IMG/VR virus record: IMGVR_UViG_2836824207_000004
Span: 10,278-74,277 of that record
Source: a virus
Lineage: Duplodnaviria; Heunggongvirae; Uroviricota; Caudoviricetes
Direction: 5' to 3' (one strand)
DNA length: 64,000 nt
The position numbers were made by a program, and so were the translations under genes. Of the stretch, positions 7,555-52,265 are shown one piece after another; the stretch's first letter is position 1, and each line of letters opens with the position of its first letter. The notes beneath the pieces are model-generated. The model saw nothing but the letters and a program-made list of their open reading frames with translations. It was not told the DNA's origin and did not search any database.

Positions 7555-10500
7555 TAAATTCTCCCTTTCTGTGCTATTCCACCCGTTACGATATGAGCAA
7601 TACGACGATCAGAAACATCTTGAGTCAAATATTGAGCAGCTGGATCTAATGAATTCGATGCTTGAGCAGTAGATTGTTCGACTTTTTGTTGCTCTATTGT
7701 TGCTTTTTTTGCCGTCTCTTGCTCAACGATTTTTAGCGACTCTTTTGAGGTATCTTGTGGCTGTTTAATCTTAGGTATAACCATACCATCTATCGATGAA
7801 ACCGGTTTCATCTGAGAAAGTAAGTCTGTATTTTTCTCTACATATTGTTTACTTAATCCAGTCATCTCGACAGGGTTATTCATAAATTTATCAACAGAAT
7901 TTAATTTGCTTTGCCCTTTTAGCAAGGCATCCCTTCCGTGAGCATTTGTCGTTACATTACCAATAATACCCGCACTAAAACGCGTAAAATCTTTTCCATA
8001 AGATCGATCTTTTAAATAAGCGTCGGCGACTTTGGCGGCGATAACTGGATCATTAACTAAGTCAGGGTTATTCACTAAATCTTCCCCGATCATTTGTCCA
8101 TATCGCATATAATTAGCCCTTCCAGTCAATTGAACAAGCCCGCGACCTCTGAAACGCCAACCATCTCCCTCCTGAGTATTACCTAGCTTAGAGCCATTCG
8201 CATCAGCATATACAACGTTAGCGAGTGCCTCAGGATTACGAACTAACGTGTTTACATCCCCACCCCATTTTTTTATTTTTGCACCGTGTACAGCCATAAT
8301 GCGTTCAGCCGAGCTATAATTCATATTTTCAGATGCCCCGTGTGCGAAATCGCCTGTTTCTCTCGCCATATTAGCAAGTGCAAAACGAATATCTTGTTCT
8401 GATGCACCATTCTTTCGAGCAATTTCAATATAGGCATCTCTCGCTTTAGCGGCATCCCCTTTATTATCAAATGAAACCACACTAGATGAATTGCTCACAG
8501 GCATACCGTTTTCAGTTATAGAAGAAGTCGGGTAGCCTACTTGCTCATTTATATAAGTCGCACCTCCTAATTTCTCTTTTAGAAAAGCAAAAATGTCATT
8601 TAATGTTGTAAAAATTAAACTTAGATATTCATTACTCAATGATACTCGTTCATTCGTATTACTGATTGCATTTACATTTTCTTCTTGAGAATGATTAACT
8701 TGTTGAAGCTGTTGCTCTACCTCTTGAGGCGAGTTTTCTGTAGGAGTTGAATGATTTAGCCCCAACCACCCACTGATCGTACTGATCGCAGAATCGGCTT
8801 TATCGACCGCCCAGTTTTTTACTGATGAACCAATATTTTTTGCACCCTGTACAGCTTGAATCCCAAGTCCTACTGCACCATCCTTTATTTTTGCACCAAT
8901 ATTTTTAGTTGTTTTCCATACGCCTGAGAAATCTAATTCATTCCAAACAGATGTAATCCAACTACTCACGCCCTCCCAAATTTGGTTTAGCTTTTCCCCA
9001 AAACTTCCCCAATCAAGACTATCCCATTGCGTTTTGATCCAACTGCTTGTGCTATCCCACGCTGCACTGACTTTAGCGGAAAAACTATCCCAACTAAGAT
9101 TGTCCCAAGTATCTTTTATCCACGCAATTGAAGCATCCCAAGCACCTGTAATTTTTTTACCAATAATACTCCAATCAAAATCTGCCGCCCACGCACCAAT
9201 TTTTTCACCTATCCAGTCGCCGATCATTGCCCCTGCAATCGTGCCAACAGGCCCTAAAAGCGATCCAATCCCCCCTCCAATTAAGGTGCCAACAGCCCCG
9301 CCGACACGTTTACCACGGTTTGATTTTCCCTCTTCATCTCGGCTATCATCAAATAATCCGCCAATGCCATCGCCAATTGCTAAAAGTGAACCTAATATAG
9401 GAATTTTCTTTAATGCCCCCTTCCCTAATCGTCCAAGCCCACCAAATATACCTTTACCAAGTTTGCCAATACCTCCCAAAAGCCCAGCACCCAATTTACC
9501 CGCACCGCCAAGCATTTTTAAAAGACCTCTTCCAATTGCAGTGGCAAACATAAAAGGTAATCGAGCCAAAAGGAAAGGGAAGCGGGCAAACATTCTCAAT
9601 AACCCAAATAATCGCCCAAAAACGCCATTTCCATTAGGCTTCTTCCAGATCCGCTTTAGCCAACTATTTTGTTGGTTATCAGCTTTTTCCTGTTGCTTAG
9701 TGAATTTTTTAAAAAATCGAAAGAAACGATTATGCTGACGCTGCTCTTTATCTTGGCCTCCAAATAACTTGCCAAATCCTCGCCCAGTAGCACCAACAAC
9801 AGTTTTCGTGGTATCAAATACCGAACCTAGCGGCCCTGTAATTTCTTTGACGCCATCAATAAGCGGATCGAGATTATCAGGGGTATCTATGGCATCTTTA
9901 ATTCCACTTAGCACTTCAACCATTGCGTTTTCGCGTGCAAGTTCCTGTGTTTCCTCCTCCGAATCTGATTTAGTCGGATTTTTTATGCCTTGTTCATCAA
10001 GTTCTGCCTCTTTGACAAAACGTCCGTCTTTATCTCGAACACGCCCGTTTTTATCTCGTTGCCATTGGTTAGGAAGCACTTCAGCATTCTCAGTCCTTTC
10101 CTTTTTCTTTGGTGGTTTATTCTGTTCAAGAATAGGTTGCGTTTGCTGTTTCGAGCTTTTTGTCTGACGTGCTTTTACAACTGGATTTAATTTTTCTTTT
10201 CCTGGATGTGTTTTACGTTCTTTAAAATGTCCAGTGTCAAATCTTGATTTATCATTTCGTTCTTCTTTCTGTTTTACTTTATGCAAATTCTCCTGATTTT
10301 TTGACCGCACTTTATCAACGACCTTGGGTGTTTTCAGTGCTTGAATTAATTCCTCGTTTGTGCGTTTTTCTGACAAATGACGCGATTTTGCTTGTTTCTC
10401 GGCTTGTGCTAACAGTGCAATTTGACGACCACCAAAATTCTCCAAAATATCGCGAATAGATGCGGTATCTTCCTTAATCTCAACTAAGGTATCACGTTTT

Positions 10501-45474: not shown

Positions 45475-45915
45475 CTATTGCTTATGAATAGCAATCGCCA
45501 CTTCGATCGCTTTTGCCGTGGTCTGTTGTGATTTGTGCAATAACTTATGCAACACATCTTGCTCTTCCTGCGTCAGTACGCCGTCGCTCAAAAACTCGTT
45601 GAGCTTGGCAAATAAAATCCCACGCTCTGCCAGTTCTTGCAGTTGTAACTGCGATAGCTCGACTAAGTCAGTTTCGTTTTCGTTCGGTACAGCAAAACTC
45701 ACCTTGCCTAAACGCCGATTGATTTCATCCGACCAATTACTTACGCCATATTCAAGCTCAATGGCAATCAATTCTTCGCAGGTGAAACGCTGTCCTTTCG
45801 TTTGATAAAGGCGGTTATTCAATGCCTGCTCTGTCATACCAAGAAAGCCCGCAACGGCTGCTTTTCCGCCTTGGCACTTTTCTATCATTTCAATAATCGT
45901 TTTCTTCATTGCCAT
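45475..45915 (-). CDS. CII-like HTH regulatory protein (146 aa)
   Basis: HTH KAAVAGFLGMTEQALNNRL. Located between the cro-like gene and the replication genes. Confidence 0.45.
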   Translation of the reverse strand: MAMKKTIIEMIEKCQGGKAAVAGFLGMTEQALNNRLYQTKGQRFTCEELIAIELEYGVSNWSDEINRRLGKVSFAVPNENETDLVELSQLQLQELAERGILFAKLNEFLSDGVLTQEEQDVLHKLLHKSQQTTAKAIEVAIAIHKQ

Positions 45916-45963: not shown

Positions 45964-46161
45964 TTAATCCTGAAATTCTGGGAAGAGCTCTCTTTTAGAT
46001 AGCCCTGTTACTTCTTTCCACTTATCCGCAGAAATATCTTGCGTAGAGATCCTTCCCCCAGATTTTTTCATTCTATAAATGAATTGAGAATTTTTGCCTA
46101 GAGCTTTAGCAAGTTTGGCTTGTGAGCCAACAGCCAAGATTGCTTTTTCTATTGGTGTCAT
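45964..46161 (-). CDS. Cro-like HTH repressor
   Basis: MTPIEKAILAVGSQAKLAKALGKNSQFIYRMKK is a Cro/YdaS-type HTH. Transcribed divergently from the CI-like gene. Confidence 0.6.
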   Translation of the reverse strand: MTPIEKAILAVGSQAKLAKALGKNSQFIYRMKKSGGRISTQDISADKWKEVTGLSKRELFPEFQD

Positions 46162-46266
46162 AAATAACCTCAACTATAAATTTAATTGCAATCAACAAAT
46201 GATAAATCAAGAGTTGATTTTTGTAAACATTTAATTTATTGAAAAACTAAATAATTTATTTAATCT

Positions 46267-46746
46267 ATGCAAAATCAAAACAAGGAGAAGCAAATGGAAA
46301 GTTTGGAGCATCAAGAAGTAGAACTAAGTCTGAAAGATCAGCTCGTTATTAAGCGTTTAGAGCAAATGGTTAAAGAAATTGGAAGTAAAATCGGATTAGC
46401 AAAAATAGCAGATGTATCTCCTCAAGCCGTAAATAACTGGTTTAAGAATGGCAAGGTCAGTGTTGATTCAGCACTAAAGTTACACAAGCACTTTGGCTAT
46501 CCTGTTGAGTGGATATTAGGGAAGGATAATAGCGATAATTCAGTTATATCTGGTAATAAATCACTAAATGTCGTTGGTACAACAATGAATGGCGGTTTGG
46601 TAAATCAAGTAAATAATGAAGGCACTTTGTATACAGAAGATTTGGTTGAGATCAAAGCTCAATTGGCACGCCTTGAGACTAAATTGGATCTATTGCAGCG
46701 TATTGAAACTAAAATTGATGTAATACTAATGCAGAAAGAAAAATGA
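46267..46746 (+). CDS. CI-like repressor, XRE HTH plus coiled-coil C-terminus, no S24 peptidase domain
   Basis: HTH LAKIADVSPQAVNNWFKNGKVSVDSALKL. The C-terminus lacks the LexA-type Ser/Lys motifs. Confidence 0.65.
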   Translation: MQNQNKEKQMESLEHQEVELSLKDQLVIKRLEQMVKEIGSKIGLAKIADVSPQAVNNWFKNGKVSVDSALKLHKHFGYPVEWILGKDNSDNSVISGNKSLNVVGTTMNGGLVNQVNNEGTLYTEDLVEIKAQLARLETKLDLLQRIETKIDVILMQKEK

Positions 46747-47081
46747 AAAACATAGCCAAACGAATTAAAGAAATCAGAGAACGAAAAGGTATATCAAGAG
46801 AAGATCTTGCTGATAACCTACATTTGTCTGTAGAAACATTGATCGGTTATGAAGAGGGATTAACCAAATTATCTACTGACTTAATCAGCGAGTTTGCTTT
46901 TGTTGATGAACATGGAGAATTATTCATTAAACGCCTACAACAAGTGCCGAATGGCGGAATAAAAATTTTATCGGACAATCCTCACTACGCCCCATTAGAT
47001 TTTACTCAAGAGGAATTGGAACGTTGTTACATTATGGGAAAATTGGTCAAAGCACTGCCATTACATATGATTGATCTATAA
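46743..47081 (+). CDS. XRE-family HTH protein (112 aa) co-transcribed with the repressor
   Basis: ATGA overlap with the repressor gene. HTH RIKEIRERKGISREDLADNLHLSVETL. Confidence 0.55.
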   Translation: MKNIAKRIKEIRERKGISREDLADNLHLSVETLIGYEEGLTKLSTDLISEFAFVDEHGELFIKRLQQVPNGGIKILSDNPHYAPLDFTQEELERCYIMGKLVKALPLHMIDL

Positions 47082-47093
47082 ACTCAAACATAA

Positions 47094-47230
47094 TGGGCGT
47101 GGCGGTTGAGCATAGGAGTTATTTGTAACCACCAAACCAGTAATTGAATTTTATTGGGTGTGGCGGTTGAGCATAGGCTGGAGCTGTAACAATAGTCCAC
47201 CAAAGCCAGAAGTTGAATTTTGTGGGCTAG
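47094..47230 (+). repeat. about 2.1 tandem copies of a ~62-bp repeat (TGGGYGTGGCGGTTGAGCATAGG...TTGAATTTT)
   Basis: Direct repeat units at 47094 and 47155, with a partial third at 47222. Confidence 0.6.
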
Positions 47231-47302
47231 GTAAAAGAACGAATAGAGCTTTGTAGCAACTAGAAGAGCGAATATCAATGATATAAAGTTTAAAGGAACG
47301 AT

Positions 47303-47842
47303 ATGGCAAGTATTGAAGATATTATTATTCCCCAGCAAGAAATCAATCATATCATGGCGATAGAAAAACAAATTCATTTTAAAGGAGCCACATGGGGGAA
47401 AAAACAAAAAACTCAGCCTTATCCTTATTGGCTTGAGTTAAAGCTTCCGTTCTTCGATAGTGATGGATTACCTATACCTCAGCTTAGGGCCTATTTTGCC
47501 TATCGTCCTGCTCGTAGAGAAAATTTAATGCCATCGATGAACTTTATTGCTTTTTATAAAAACAGACGGTTATTTGCTATTGATCAAGGTGAAAAGTTAG
47601 TTCATGTAAATAAAATAACTCATGTAAAGCCCATAGCCGAAAGCCGTATTTGTGGTGCTCACTACCACATTCTACACGGTAAAGAAAACCAAGAAACGGG
47701 CTATTTACTAGATGAAAAATATCAAAAATCAAATGATTTTTTTGAATTGATGTGCTATTTTCTAGCAAAATTTAATACTGTCGCAGTGGGGCAAATTCCT
47801 CACCCAATCTTATCAAACAACGGACAAATGGAGCTATTATGA
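47303..47842 (+). CDS. hypothetical protein (179 aa), first gene of the rex-position pair
   Basis: Track ORF. No recognised domain. Confidence 0.55.
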   Translation: MASIEDIIIPQQEINHIMAIEKQIHFKGATWGKKQKTQPYPYWLELKLPFFDSDGLPIPQLRAYFAYRPARRENLMPSMNFIAFYKNRRLFAIDQGEKLVHVNKITHVKPIAESRICGAHYHILHGKENQETGYLLDEKYQKSNDFFELMCYFLAKFNTVAVGQIPHPILSNNGQMELL

Positions 47843-48603
47843 TATGCAGCACAGTCTTATCCAATCTAGGCTATGAATGTCATTCTATTGCCGATGATTT
47901 GATTTTAATTAATACCCCTTTCACTCTTGAAGATGGTAGCGTTATTCAGGCATACATTGAACAAGTGGGAGAAAATCGTTTTACTGTCACTGACGATGCT
48001 CAAACTTTGTGGGAAATGAACGCTCGAGGAATCAATCTAACCACTAACCGTATCGACCAAATAAAAAGCACGTTAAAACGTTACGGATTAAACTTGAACG
48101 ATCGAGCGGAAATCAACACGACAACAAGCGGTGAAATGCTTACACATAATTTGCAACGCATCATTCAAGCGGCAATTATCACAGATACGCTTGCTATGGA
48201 TTGGTACAACGTGCCAATAGATAAATTCGAGATGATGGTAAAGTCTGATTTTCGCCATCATCAATTCCCTCAAAATATCGGATTTGATGTGAAAAAATCA
48301 GGATTGAGCGGTCATCAAATTACAATCCCAATTTCATTAACCGGCGGAGAGCGACACACCAAACAGATTTTTACAACGAGTGTAAAAGCAAAAGGCAGTT
48401 GGAGCAGTGCTTATGGCGTTCTAGGTAAAATAATGGATCTGACCAATCCAACAGCACAAACAAATGATGAATCTTATGTGGTCATTGATGATAAAGCAGT
48501 AGGTGATCAATTAAATAAACTTATTCTGCTCTTTAATCAATCTCCGGCAAAGATTCTGCCTTATGATAAAAAAGATATTTGGCTTGAAAAACTCGCCGCT
48601 TAA
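47839..48603 (+). CDS. hypothetical protein (254 aa), second gene of the rex-position pair
   Basis: Start overlaps the upstream stop (ATGA), so the two are translationally coupled. A terminator follows. Confidence 0.55.
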   Translation: MICSTVLSNLGYECHSIADDLILINTPFTLEDGSVIQAYIEQVGENRFTVTDDAQTLWEMNARGINLTTNRIDQIKSTLKRYGLNLNDRAEINTTTSGEMLTHNLQRIIQAAIITDTLAMDWYNVPIDKFEMMVKSDFRHHQFPQNIGFDVKKSGLSGHQITIPISLTGGERHTKQIFTTSVKAKGSWSSAYGVLGKIMDLTNPTAQTNDESYVVIDDKAVGDQLNKLILLFNQSPAKILPYDKKDIWLEKLAA

Positions 48604-48610
48604 AACATCA

Positions 48611-48636
48611 AACCGCCCCCACGGCGGTTTTCTTTT
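48611..48636 (+). terminator. Rho-independent terminator
   Basis: aaccgcc-cccac-ggcggtt followed by TTTC TTTT. Confidence 0.65.
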
Positions 48637-48894
48637 GCCTCAAATCCCTTAGAACCATTTTCGTGACGCCACGAAAATGGTATTCCAGCAAAATTCATTT
48701 CTCAATTTCCACTTTTTTACGCCTTCTTTGTTTAAAAGATAAGCAATTAAACAAATTTTTTCAAATTATTTTCCTTTAAAAATCAACAATATATTTACTT
48801 TTGGTGTAAATTTTATATTTATTTGATAAATTAAATATTTACAAATAATTAAATTTTTGATTTAATACCCCCATCAAAACGAAACAACGTTTAA

Positions 48895-48908
48895 TGCTCT
48901 TTAACAAT
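48895..48908 (+). promoter_or_regulatory. boxA-like antitermination element TGCTCTTTAACAAT (copy 1), with hairpin 48924-48943
   Basis: 14/14 match to the start of E. coli rrn boxA (TGCTCTTTAACAATTTA). A hairpin agccctg-cggtaa-cagggct lies 15 nt downstream, the spacing expected for a nut site. Confidence 0.5.
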
Positions 48909-48950
48909 CAAGATGAAATAAAAAGCCCTGCGGTAACAGGGCTTGGATAA

Positions 48951-49121
48951 TTAAACTTCGCGAACAGGTGTTTGTCGGTTAGTGTCCATAACAAGCCCGA
49001 TACAATGTAAGCAGTTTTGTTTGGTCGTATAACCTTCACTTTGAGCTATAGGTTCGTGATTGGCGGCTTTTAGTCGCCAATACCACTGACCATTAACACC
49101 TTTGAAAATTTCAAAATACAT
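48951..49121 (-). CDS. DUF1508 (YegP-like) small protein (56 aa)
   Basis: MYFEIFKGVNGQWYWRLKAANHEPIAQSEGYTTKQNCLHCIGLV fits the DUF1508 repeat. Confidence 0.7.
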   Translation of the reverse strand: MYFEIFKGVNGQWYWRLKAANHEPIAQSEGYTTKQNCLHCIGLVMDTNRQTPVREV

Positions 49122-49381: not shown

Positions 49382-49395
49382 TGCTCTTTAACAAT
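49382..49395 (+). promoter_or_regulatory. boxA-like element TGCTCTTTAACAATTTAGAAC (copy 2)
   Basis: 17/20 identical to rrnB boxA. Confidence 0.5.
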
Positions 49396-49934: not shown

Positions 49935-50192
49935 ATGAAAAATAAAATTACTGATTTAAACAACCATCTTTTTAGTCAATTAGAAAAATTGTTAGATGAA
50001 GATTTAACAGATGAAGAATTAAAAAGGGAAATTGCTAGAGCGAATGCGGTATCTGGTATTGCATCGAATATCATTCAAAATTCTAATACAGCCATTAAAG
50101 CAATGCAGCTTTTCGGTGACCGCACTATTGAGGCAGATGCACCCGATTTTTTAAGAATATCAAAGGCACAAAATGACAAAAAAACGCTTTAG
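49935..50192 (+). CDS. hypothetical protein (85 aa)
   Basis: Track ORF. Confidence 0.45.
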   Translation: MKNKITDLNNHLFSQLEKLLDEDLTDEELKREIARANAVSGIASNIIQNSNTAIKAMQLFGDRTIEADAPDFLRISKAQNDKKTL

Positions 50193-50880
50193 GTTTACTG
50201 ATGAACATATTGCTTTTATCCGTGAACATAAAGATTTAGCTCCTAAAGATCTCATTCAGGCCTTTTATCAACAATTTGGTTTGCTAAAGAATAGGCAGGT
50301 TTTTAGAAAGCTAAAAAAACGATTAGGAATTATCTCAACGGTTCAACATTGCAATCGATATACCAAAGAAGAGTTAGCCTTTATCAAAGAAAATTGCACT
50401 TTACCGCAAGCGGAATTAACCAAACTATTTAATCAAAAGTTTAACCGTAATCAGACCGCACAAGTAATTAGGGCACTGTGTGCTAAAAGAGGTTGGCTGA
50501 CTGGTAGAAATGGGCGATTTAAAAAAGGAGAACATTTAAAGCCTATTGGTTACGAGCGATTTTGCCCTATGGCAAAAGCCGTGTTGATAAAAACAGGAGT
50601 TAAGCGTTATGAAAGAAAATCACACGTTATCTGGGAACAAGCCTTTGGCAAAATCCCTCAAGGATTTGTTTTGTGGTTTAAAGACGGCAATATTCAAAAT
50701 TGTGAGTTATCTAATTTAGAACTAATCAGTCGTAATGAAATGCTATGGCGACATAAGCTGAATTACCACGAATTAGACAGCAGTGTGAAACAAACTTTTA
50801 ATGTGTTTATTCAACTACGAGAAAAATTGATAAAACTCAAAAAGCAACAGCAACAAAAGGACCGCATAGCAAAAGGATAA
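50173..50880 (+). CDS. HNH endonuclease (HNH_3-like)
   Basis: SHVIWEQAFGKIPQGFVLWFKDGNIQNCELSNLELISRNE is typical of HNH_3 homing-type endonucleases. Confidence 0.7.
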   Translation: MTKKRFRFTDEHIAFIREHKDLAPKDLIQAFYQQFGLLKNRQVFRKLKKRLGIISTVQHCNRYTKEELAFIKENCTLPQAELTKLFNQKFNRNQTAQVIRALCAKRGWLTGRNGRFKKGEHLKPIGYERFCPMAKAVLIKTGVKRYERKSHVIWEQAFGKIPQGFVLWFKDGNIQNCELSNLELISRNEMLWRHKLNYHELDSSVKQTFNVFIQLREKLIKLKKQQQQKDRIAKG

Positions 50881-50943: not shown

Positions 50944-51009
50944 CAAGGCACACTGAGTCATTATCTACGGATTATTTTAGACCAATCTTCTTGCCGTAGT
51001 TAGTGTGCC
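50944..51009. repeat. nested inverted repeat (12-bp arms ACAAGGCACACT / AGTGTGCCTTGT with an inner 6-bp pair)
   Basis: Perfect 12-bp arms separated by 42 bp. Lies directly after the tRNA-like element. Confidence 0.6.
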
Positions 51010-51116
51010 TTGTCATAACTTTCATTCAAAACCGCATTCTTAGCCGCTCGTTTTTAGTCTTTTTCATCGTGGCTTTGCGTGCGGTTCTAAATGAGATGAG
51101 AAATAGGAGAAACGCA

Positions 51117-52265
51117 GTGAAAAAATATGAATTAACCGATGAATATATTGAGATCGGATTTACAACTAAAATTAAACTCTATCGCATAAAAGCTTTAGTA
51201 GCAATCGCATCAATCGGCGTTAGTGCTGGTGATTTGGGTGGCTATATTGAGAAAGAGTCAAACTTAGATCAGAGCGGCGATGCCTGGGTGTACGATAATG
51301 CCAAGGTGTACGATAATGCCAAGGTGTACGGCGATGCCGTGGTGTCCGGTAATGCCAAGGTGTCCGGTAATGCCAAGGTGTCCGGCGATGCCGTGGTGTG
51401 CGGTAATGCCGTGGTGTACGGTAATGCCAAGGTGTACGGCGATGCCAAGGTGTGCGGCGATGCCAAGGTGTACGGTGATGCCGAGGTGTACGGTGATGCC
51501 GTGGTGTGCGGTGATGCCAAGGTGTACGATAATGCCGTGGTGTGCGGTGATGCCGAGGTGTACGATAATGCCGTGGTGTCCGGTGATGCCGAGGTGTCCG
51601 GCGATGCCAAGGTGTACGGCGATGCCGTGGTGTGCGGTAATGCCGTGGTGTACGATAATGCCGAGGTGTGCGGTGATGCCGTGGTGTACGGTGATGCCGA
51701 GGTGTACGGTGATGCCAAGGTGTACGGCGATGCCGTGGTGTCCGGTGATGCCAAGGTGTCCGGCGATGCCGTGGTGTGCGGTGATGCCGTGGTGTACGGT
51801 AATGCCAAGGTGTACGGCGATGCCGTGGTGTACGGTGATGCCGTGGTGTCCGGTGATGCCGTGGTGTACGGTGATGCCGAGGTGTACGGTGATGCCAAGG
51901 TGTACGGCGATGCCGTGGTGTCCGGTGATGCCAAGGTGTCCGGCGATGCCGTGGTGTGCGGTGATGCCGTGGTGTACGGTAATGCCGTGGTGTGCGGTGA
52001 TGCCAAGGTGTACGGTAATGCCGTGGTGTGCGGTGATGCCAAAGTGTCCGAGAGATCTGATATTGTATGGTTTTCGAATGTTGGTACGGAGTACGGAACA
52101 TTAACCGTATTTAAAACTAAGCAAGGAGTATTGTGGGCTACTAGAGGATGTTTTAGTGGCTCTGTTGAGGAGTTTTTGAAAAAATCCGCGGAAGTTCACG
52201 ATGAAAAAACGAAAAGAGAATATCAACTCTTGATCGAAGTGGCTAAATCCAGATTAGGTGAATAA
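51117..52265 (+). CDS. 6-residue-repeat (beta-solenoid-like) protein, about 43 copies of V-[YSC]-G-[DN]-A-[KVE] plus unique N- and C-terminal domains
   Basis: GTG at 51117 has an AGGAGA RBS. The in-frame ATG at 51096 is an alternative start. The repeats are encoded by 18-bp tandem DNA repeats. Confidence 0.6.
   Translation: MKKYELTDEYIEIGFTTKIKLYRIKALVAIASIGVSAGDLGGYIEKESNLDQSGDAWVYDNAKVYDNAKVYGDAVVSGNAKVSGNAKVSGDAVVCGNAVVYGNAKVYGDAKVCGDAKVYGDAEVYGDAVVCGDAKVYDNAVVCGDAEVYDNAVVSGDAEVSGDAKVYGDAVVCGNAVVYDNAEVCGDAVVYGDAEVYGDAKVYGDAVVSGDAKVSGDAVVCGDAVVYGNAKVYGDAVVYGDAVVSGDAVVYGDAEVYGDAKVYGDAVVSGDAKVSGDAVVCGDAVVYGNAVVCGDAKVYGNAVVCGDAKVSERSDIVWFSNVGTEYGTLTVFKTKQGVLWATRGCFSGSVEEFLKKSAEVHDEKTKREYQLLIEVAKSRLGE
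51271..52050 (+). repeat. about 43 tandem 18-bp repeats (GGTGTACGGCGATGCCAA variants)
   Basis: Variation is concentrated at codon positions giving Y/S/C, D/N and K/V/E. All three minus and plus frames are open here, which is an artefact. Confidence 0.8.

Follow-up and report, generated by a model that had tools for sequence, protein, structure and literature searches.

Genes A and B, a translationally coupled pair encoding proteins of 179 and 254 amino acids (aa), follow the CI-type repressor gene in a 64,000-nucleotide (nt) stretch of Caudoviricetes DNA (positions 10,278 to 74,277 of IMG/VR record IMGVR_UViG_2836824207_000004; hereafter the window). The pair is conserved as a unit, is linked to cI genes, moves among prophages of different immunity types, and lies in the position where phage λ keeps rexA and rexB. 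We put the probability at roughly 55% that A and B are expressed with the repressor in lysogens and protect them from other phages, a defence role predicted from the context of the genes. Each of the two proteins is 100% identical to a protein of Avibacterium paragallinarum, the species to which we assign the window. With this pair a family that two computational resources already flag as candidate defence gains a new, divergent member, and defence cargo linked to repressor genes is itself well known.

The pair occupies the rexAB slot

The initial annotation of the window had placed the pair in a slot equivalent to that of rexAB, and the E. coli homologues bear this out. These homologues lie between cI and N, and related prophages hold rexAB, an NYN-domain gene or other cargo in the same place. 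Phage ev207 of E. coli and prophage 3 of E. coli Nissle 1917 share one gene order: cII and cro, then cI, the A-like gene, the B-like gene, N and sieB. The encoded proteins have 30% (A) and 41% (B) identity with those of the window, and their genes have the same ATGA coupling and the same place behind cI. Among 5426 complete E. coli genomes, 241 carry the E. coli pair at 99% identity or more; Nissle 1917, CFT073 and the type strain are among these. With the whole cI-to-N segment as the query, 1774 genomes gave a partial match and only 236 a full match.

Some prophages that carry alternative cargo have a cI gene that is 96-99% identical, an identical Cro protein and the same N flank. Strain XH988, in which sieB is also present, has two different genes in the cI-N slot, for hypothetical proteins of 283 and 163 aa, and another prophage with matching cI, cro and N flanks has an NYN-domain gene there. 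The λ immunity region has rexA and rexB in the slot: the query matches only the 3′ part of cI and the region downstream of B (19%, ~93% identity), and PADLOC models confirm the slot genes as RexA (9e-110) and RexB (8.6e-61). In Pasteurellaceae, the junction at the cI end recurs in Mannheimia phage 535AP2, with other small genes after it. Because the same cI, cro and N work with other cargo, the pair is dispensable for lysogeny control and for repressor function. A-B is allelic with known and suspected defence cargo. Further rows of the cI-to-N match table list, at the position of the match, a Clp-fold serine proteinase and a DUF6932 protein, as seen from the table entries alone.

The likeness to rexAB is one of position. 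Both are two-gene units right behind cI, on the same strand and ahead of pL and N, although expression of A-B in the lysogen is presumed. There is no sequence kinship, as the PADLOC RexA and RexB models match neither A nor B at E ≤ 1, and the folds and sizes of the proteins differ. RexB crosses the membrane several times, but A and B lack any hydrophobic segment: over 19 residues the Kyte-Doolittle value peaks at 1.06 in A and at 0.88 in B, and neither has a transmembrane segment.

The pair is a conserved and mobile cassette

We drew 100 related loci from collections of genomes, viruses, phages and metagenomes, with the viral contigs searched by single-protein scans. Full-length B is present in 98 of these loci, the window included. 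Gene A lies directly upstream of B, with the same ATGA overlap, in 96 of the 98, down to B identities of 21-29%; the two exceptions are one contig end and one homopolymer sequencing error. A CI-like ORF (open reading frame) with helix-turn-helix (HTH) and S24 features lies upstream on the same strand in 93 of 98 loci, across a gap that is typically 26-130 nt long and reaches 974 nt. The hosts are Pasteurellaceae (Avibacterium, Haemophilus, Rodentibacter, Gallibacterium), Enterobacteriaceae, Pseudomonas and Burkholderia. At unsaturated distances the ratio of nonsynonymous to synonymous substitution rates (dN/dS) of A and B is 0.07-0.24, indicating purifying selection. Judged from the nearly invariant coupling and from dN/dS, the A-B pairing is far beyond chance.

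The repressors next to the pair are far more diverse than the pair itself. At 50% identity the CI proteins form 24 clusters, versus 4-5 for A and B, and one B cluster (at least 90% identity) is found behind up to six different CI clusters. Homology with Haemophilus prophages begins 10 nt before the A start, at 47293, and stops right after the terminator stem (~48635). For other Avibacterium and Rodentibacter prophages the left blastn breakpoints fall at 47188 (Rodentibacter), 47089 (locus L010 of our sample) and 46743 (L002), the last being the start of ORF2. The right breakpoints lie at 48631-48649. From the contrast in cluster numbers and the breakpoints that hug A-B, we thus conclude that the pair is a discrete, horizontally exchanged cassette. 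The cassette has its own ribosome-binding sites and terminator and lacks a convincing promoter. It would depend on read-through from the repressor gene.

Apparent frameshifts in A and B in L003 (A. paragallinarum NCTC11296) and L017 (an IMG/VR contig) do not mark real pseudogenes, being single-base deletions in A/T homopolymers that are most likely long-read errors. For Pseudomonas phage VB_PaD_phPA-G (PP083311.1; L019:3420-4004), the record has no annotation of the A-like gene, although the sequence contains it, joined to the B-like gene by ATGA coupling. This phage also has a 216-aa gene between cI and the pair.

Layout of the locus

The + strand carries, in order, the CI-type repressor gene (ORF1), a 112-aa ORF (ORF2), a 221-nt gap, A, B and an intrinsic terminator (Table 1). 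ORF1 matches Phage_CI_repr (7.9e-6) and HTH_3 (1e-5), both over the Pfam cut-offs, as well as PHROG transcriptional regulator and repressor families. It has a coiled-coil-like C-terminal tail and no S24 peptidase domain. An ATGA overlap joins the start of ORF2 to the stop of ORF1, and another joins the start of B to the end of A. The Shine-Dalgarno sequence AAAGGA lies 5 nt ahead of the A start and GGAG lies 5 nt ahead of the B start. A Rha-family gene and replication genes are also on the - strand, as are the cro-like gene and cII.

Table 1. Positions of the features around genes A and B, numbered from the first nucleotide of the window
Feature	Position	Strand	Basis
cII gene	45475-45915	-	Phage_CP76, 6e-11; divergent from ORF1
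cro-like gene	45964-46173	-	Divergent from ORF1
ORF1, probable prophage repressor, 159 aa	46267-46746	+	CI-type HTH, Phage_CI_repr and HTH_3
ORF2, internally deleted CI relic, 112 aa	46743-47081	+	HTH_3 and partial Peptidase_S24
Two tandem relics of S24-type cI 3′ ends	47091-47226	+	Direct repeats D1 and D2
Minimal mobile cassette (ribosome-binding site, A, B, terminator)	47293-48635	+	blastn breakpoints
Gene A, 179 aa	47303-47842	+	Weak DUF6978 / PDC-M24A relative, phrog_2017
Gene B, 254 aa	47839-48603	+	DUF1828, probable diverged DUF1829, PDC-M24B
Intrinsic terminator	48610-48639 (hairpin 48610-48630)	+	Stem, loop, T-rich tail
Nut-like site of next operon (boxA and boxB-like hairpin)	48895-48944	+	Consensus match, hairpin

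The repressor gene, the ATGA-linked HTH gene and the coupled pair are all where the initial annotation had drawn them. The closing terminator that it called strong is present too, but is decent rather than exceptional: the hairpin has an 8-bp stem with 5 G-C pairs and a 5-nt loop (-11.9 kcal/mol), and is followed by the T-rich TTTTCTTTT. A scan of the + strand from 46267 to 48610 found no terminator-like site. The annotated leftward-operon region with its boxA also lies downstream as described. The rrn-type boxA consensus TGCTCTTTAACAA (13 nt) occurs exactly at 48895-48907 and at 49382-49394 on the + strand, less than 500 nt apart, and a boxB-like hairpin (48923-48944) lies 3′ of the first copy; the region between the terminator and boxA is AT-rich. 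The two boxA copies suggest processive antitermination of the early-left operon. A further boxA-like match of 9 nt is found at 48527, within gene B.

The divergent cro and cII and the order of terminator, boxA and boxB therefore give the locus the λ topology of cro, cI-rexA-rexB and pL-nutL-N. As the cassette is inserted between the repressor and the early-left operon, A and B are probably co-transcribed with the repressor, and on this layout the three genes would be transcribed together in the lysogen. We also looked for operators common to the cro-side and pL-side promoter regions, and found only short AT-rich words that were unconvincing.

Remains of cI genes upstream of the pair

The HTH gene that had been placed before the pair exists as an ORF with an HTH_3 domain (1.2e-8), but it is a remnant. 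Its Peptidase_S24 match (1.7e-7) covers just model positions 70-116 of 116. Because it combines HTH_3 with only the last ~47 positions of the Peptidase_S24 model, ORF2 is an internally deleted CI; the missing part presumably includes the catalytic Ser/Lys region of S24, going by what is known of LexA. In A. paragallinarum, ORF2 and the A-B cassette move together from prophage to prophage. Homology between the window and a second prophage of this species, whose CI is full-length and different, begins exactly at 46743. In the window, ORF2 remains as an ATGA-coupled ORF behind an unrelated repressor without S24.

A and B were also said to follow the HTH gene. The order and the strand are right, but the 221-nt gap lies between, and it holds two imperfect direct repeats of ~65 nt (D1 and D2). 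Each repeat consists of the last 12 codons of an S24-type CI (ending in IMGVAVEHRSYL and LLGVAVEHRLEL, each followed by the stop codon) and ~30 nt of conserved downstream DNA. In Mannheimia phage 535AP2, the end of cI aligns with both of them. We read the repeats, from their sequence, as scars of repeated recombination or cassette exchange at the cI 3′ end, and the region that they span looks like a recombination site for the exchange of cargo. A structured RNA or type III antitoxin in the gap was considered and rejected, since the repeats translate as CI ends and match 535AP2. An Rfam search of the gap gave no match, and the gap region did not fold better than shuffled sequence (z of -0.56 and -0.06).

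Proteins A and B belong to described but uncharacterised families

Neither protein had been recognised in the initial annotation. Both in fact match described families (DUF1828, DUF6978, phrog and PDC-M24 families), although these families are uncharacterised. Profile and structure searches gave no confident match to housekeeping or structural phage proteins, the outcome that the annotation had named as speaking against its proposal. NCBIfam gave no match for A or B, and no sequence relative with a solved structure was found for either.

Protein B is soluble and acidic (isoelectric point, pI, 5.5). It matches phrog_1960 (9e-51), and residues 26-112 match DUF1828 (PF08861) at 48.8 bits against a cut-off of 22 (9e-13). 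The structure model of B has two domains and a mean confidence (pLDDT) of 77. In this model the fold of the N-terminal DUF1828 domain resembles that of type III secretion chaperones. By model comparison, residues ~129-254 resemble the restriction-endonuclease (PD-(D/E)xK) fold, with similarity scores of 10.8 for Can2, 10.3 for BstEII, 9.8 for NgoMIV, 9.7 for PspGI, 9.6 for BsoBI and 7.7 for NucC, and the alpha-beta-beta-beta-alpha-beta core of these nucleases is present. DUF1829 (PF08862) was not matched in a Pfam search with the window's B; a Burkholderia homologue matches it at 23.4 bits against a cut-off of 22.2, and a published HHblits table gives the E. coli homologue DUF1828 at 99.5% and DUF1829, of clan PDDEXK, at 98.8% (PMC13092281). 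The C-terminal domain of B is probably a diverged DUF1829, and its fold is consistent with this.

The only invariant residues of the C-terminal domain among Pasteurellaceae, E. coli, Pseudomonas and Burkholderia proteins are G155, S157, H159, K197 and D200. The catalytic residues of the D...(D/E)xK motif are not conserved in the family alignment, as D150 is replaced by R or N and K152 varies. Nuclease activity of B is doubtful because the canonical acidic catalytic positions are not conserved. This sets B apart from Can2, NucC and the type II restriction enzymes. Unlike effectors of the Can2/NucC type, B also has no CARF or other cyclic-nucleotide sensor domain.

Protein A is soluble, basic (pI 8.8) and mostly beta. 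It matches phrog_2017 (4e-18). Its DUF6978 (PF22398) match, 21.6 bits and confined to the C-terminal third, is under the gathering cut-off of 29.6, and Haemophilus orthologues (84-87% identity) have a precomputed PF22398 match; A is therefore a marginal DUF6978 relative. The invariant or nearly invariant residues of A are R89, D94, H101, N103, G118, H120 and H122, which form the motif R-x4-D-x6-8-H-x-N-x13-18-G-[AP]-H-x-H. This cluster of Asp, His, Asn and His-x-His looks like a metal-binding or catalytic site. A profile search of 1.8 billion representatives with A found only 9 clusters at 50% identity, and the close family of A is therefore small. A Kelch likeness of A was rejected as an artefact (a match to a designed Kelch-repeat protein at E ≤ 10, and six sub-threshold repeats, each at E ~100). 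We also rejected A as a paralogue of the N-terminal domain of B: the hhalign probability is 0.2%, and A and B are unrelated.

Matches to predicted and known defence systems

PADLOC had been proposed as a check on the pair, and its models do give matches, B to PDC-M24B and A, more weakly, to PDC-M24A. No other PADLOC model matched A or B. The two PDC-M24 components are likewise encoded by adjacent, co-directional genes in the same order. The match of B (PDLC04539) is moderate, at E 2.1e-14 over residues 15-252 and model positions 22-253 of 255, and that of A (PDLC04536) is weak and partial, at E 1.3e-4 over model positions 78-140 of 148. Both E. coli homologues match the PDC-M24 components, while in Burkholderia and Pseudomonas only B does.

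The second resource is DefensePredictor (Science 2026), where WP_001062368.1 and WP_000968518.1, encoded in one operon, are each listed as a 'predicted novel defense gene' (PMC13092281). The log-odds for this E. coli pair are 4.9-6.3, with a cut-off of 4 (PMC13092281). The two proteins, those of Nissle 1917 prophage 3, CFT073 and phage ev207, are of the same family as A and B, but their sequences are divergent and their hosts belong to another family.

DS-6/HipAD is a known system that bears on B. It has been validated as a defence against phages and consists of two genes, one for a HipA-like kinase and one for its non-toxic partner, a DUF3037-DUF1829 protein that possibly binds DNA (PMC13092281). 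B probably has DUF1829 in common with this partner, the assignment in DS-6B having a probability of just 0.78 (PMC13092281). The systems differ in that the DS-6 protein is paired with a HipA-family kinase rather than a DUF6978-like protein, and has DUF3037 instead of DUF1828 as its N-terminal domain. By analogy, DS-6/HipAD may serve as a weak precedent for a regulatory role of DUF1829.

Prophage defences of the BstA type sit beside the repressor. Like A-B they are carried by temperate phages, as single genes or small sets, but the proteins are unrelated. BstA of BTP1-like prophages is described as a temperate-phage gene that protects the lysogen (PMC8585504).

Resistance of E. coli Nissle 1917 to λ and to Shiga toxin (Stx) phages was attributed in part to prophage 3, with 'another factor' left unidentified (PMC5987069, 2018). 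The 410-bp 'pr' clone of that study cannot carry A or B (PMC5987069). The A-B homologues could be part of this unexplained, prophage-3-dependent resistance, which we offer as a lead only.

Proposed role and alternatives

We propose that the A-B cassette, situated between the repressor and the early-left operon, is transcribed with the repressor in the manner of λ rexAB, and that it would protect the lysogen through superinfection exclusion or abortive infection. A and B, both soluble, would be made in a fixed ratio and form a complex. B would be the regulator or sensor. Its chaperone-like DUF1828 domain may hold A or recognise a phage product, and its restriction-endonuclease-like, probable DUF1829 domain, lacking conserved catalytic acids, may bind nucleic acid. 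A would be the effector, released or activated upon infection. We assign these roles with low confidence, A from its metal-site motif and basic charge, and B from its chaperone-like and degenerate endonuclease folds and acidic charge. The fuller claim, that A-B is a mechanistically new anti-phage system in which B checks the effector A, and that it has spread by cassette exchange at the cI 3′ end through lambdoid prophages in four or more bacterial families, falls a little short of an even chance in our estimate.

Several points weigh against a defence role. The PDC-x entries of PADLOC are unpublished and unvalidated candidates, and one PDC-M system that was tested gave no defence. The accessions and locus tags of the E. 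coli pair are absent from the tables of the 118 units tested in the DefensePredictor study (PMC13092281), and our search of the literature on PDC-M24, DUF1828, DUF6978 and the WP accessions found no functional study of, or experiment on, the family. Both family matches of A, to PDC-M24A and DUF6978, are partial and under the curated cut-offs. Structure comparison of the A model gave no fold, and the model is at its least confident in the conserved region. As B does not retain the PD-(D/E)xK residues, no catalytic activity can be named for A or B. The locus sample is biased, made up of prophages and viral contigs found through homology. Within it, the linkage to cI is strict and no copy of the pair lies in a chromosomal defence island, so the pair could instead have a role tied to lysogeny.

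One such role would be to modulate lysogeny or excision, which we consider very unlikely. The same cI and cro alleles function without the pair and with unrelated cargo in its slot, the same pair serves at least 24 repressor clusters, and phage 535AP2 has the same junction with different genes behind it. A toxin-antitoxin (addiction) pair that stabilises the prophage or the immunity region, with no specific anti-phage activity, has more to recommend it: the genes are small and translationally coupled with a strictly conserved 4-nt overlap, one protein is basic and the other acidic (pI 8.8 and 5.5), the cassette is mobile, and the DUF1829 protein of DS-6/HipAD has been proposed as an antitoxin-like partner. 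Even so, this explanation is unlikely, because neither A nor B matches a toxin or antitoxin family in Pfam, NCBIfam or PADLOC, and the cassette, with no obvious promoter or operator of its own, would ride on the cI transcript. Many toxin-antitoxin modules also defend against phages, so this alternative overlaps with the defence role that we favour.

The pair could also be lysogenic-conversion cargo whose benefit to the host has nothing to do with phages, for instance by raising stress tolerance or virulence in an animal host. It has the typical anatomy of accessory genes, with its own terminator, and the bacteria that carry it include pathogens and commensals of animals, namely A. paragallinarum, Haemophilus, and E. 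coli CFT073 and Nissle. However, A and B lack signal peptides and transmembrane segments and are thus cytoplasmic, and neither matches a virulence or metabolic family. The hosts range from respiratory Pasteurellaceae to Burkholderia and Pseudomonas, which speaks against a factor for one niche, and the known occupants of the slot are defence genes, such as rexAB. We give such cargo little probability. Equally little attaches to a variant of the defence model in which B is an active DNA nuclease and the effector against incoming DNA, with A only a specificity or sensor subunit. The fold of the C-terminal domain would suit such an enzyme, but the PD and (D/E)xK positions are not conserved (D150 is R or N in relatives) while S157, H159, K197 and D200 are invariant, and the more enzyme-like invariant cluster is in A. 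Defence of the lysogen, with A as the candidate effector, remains the reading that we prefer.

The slot between cI and N is the oldest known home of prophage defence, in the form of rexAB, and by our comparisons it acts as an exchangeable cargo site in Pasteurellaceae as in E. coli. A-B is a recurrent occupant of this slot, in prophages of E. coli, Haemophilus, Avibacterium, Pseudomonas and Burkholderia. No relative of either protein has been characterised. The cI 3′-end relics show how such cassettes move between immunity types. If A-B does defend, it would provide a new effector family and a function for DUF1828, DUF1829 and DUF6978, and would have a bearing on phage therapy and on the behaviour of probiotic strains. 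Because the pair is so widespread, also in E. coli strains that are studied intensively, it merits experiments, though it is hardly surprising.

Neighbouring genes

On the - strand at 48951-49121, after the nut-like site and before the early-left genes, an antisense gene encodes a 56-aa DUF1508/YegP-like protein (6e-17). One hairpin serves both as the terminator of this gene (48944-48923, - strand) and as the boxB-like element on the + strand. The early-left operon includes a gene at 50173-50880 (+ strand) for a 235-aa protein with an HNH_3 endonuclease domain. Farther on, a 420-aa ORF (51003-52265, + strand) contains an array of 42.6 tandem copies of an 18-nt unit encoding a hexapeptide (51275-52040). 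The GC content of the array is 0.59-0.62 against a background of ~0.38, and its translation matches the Pfam YdcK beta-solenoid repeat (2.7e-28). All three forward and all three reverse frames are open throughout the array.

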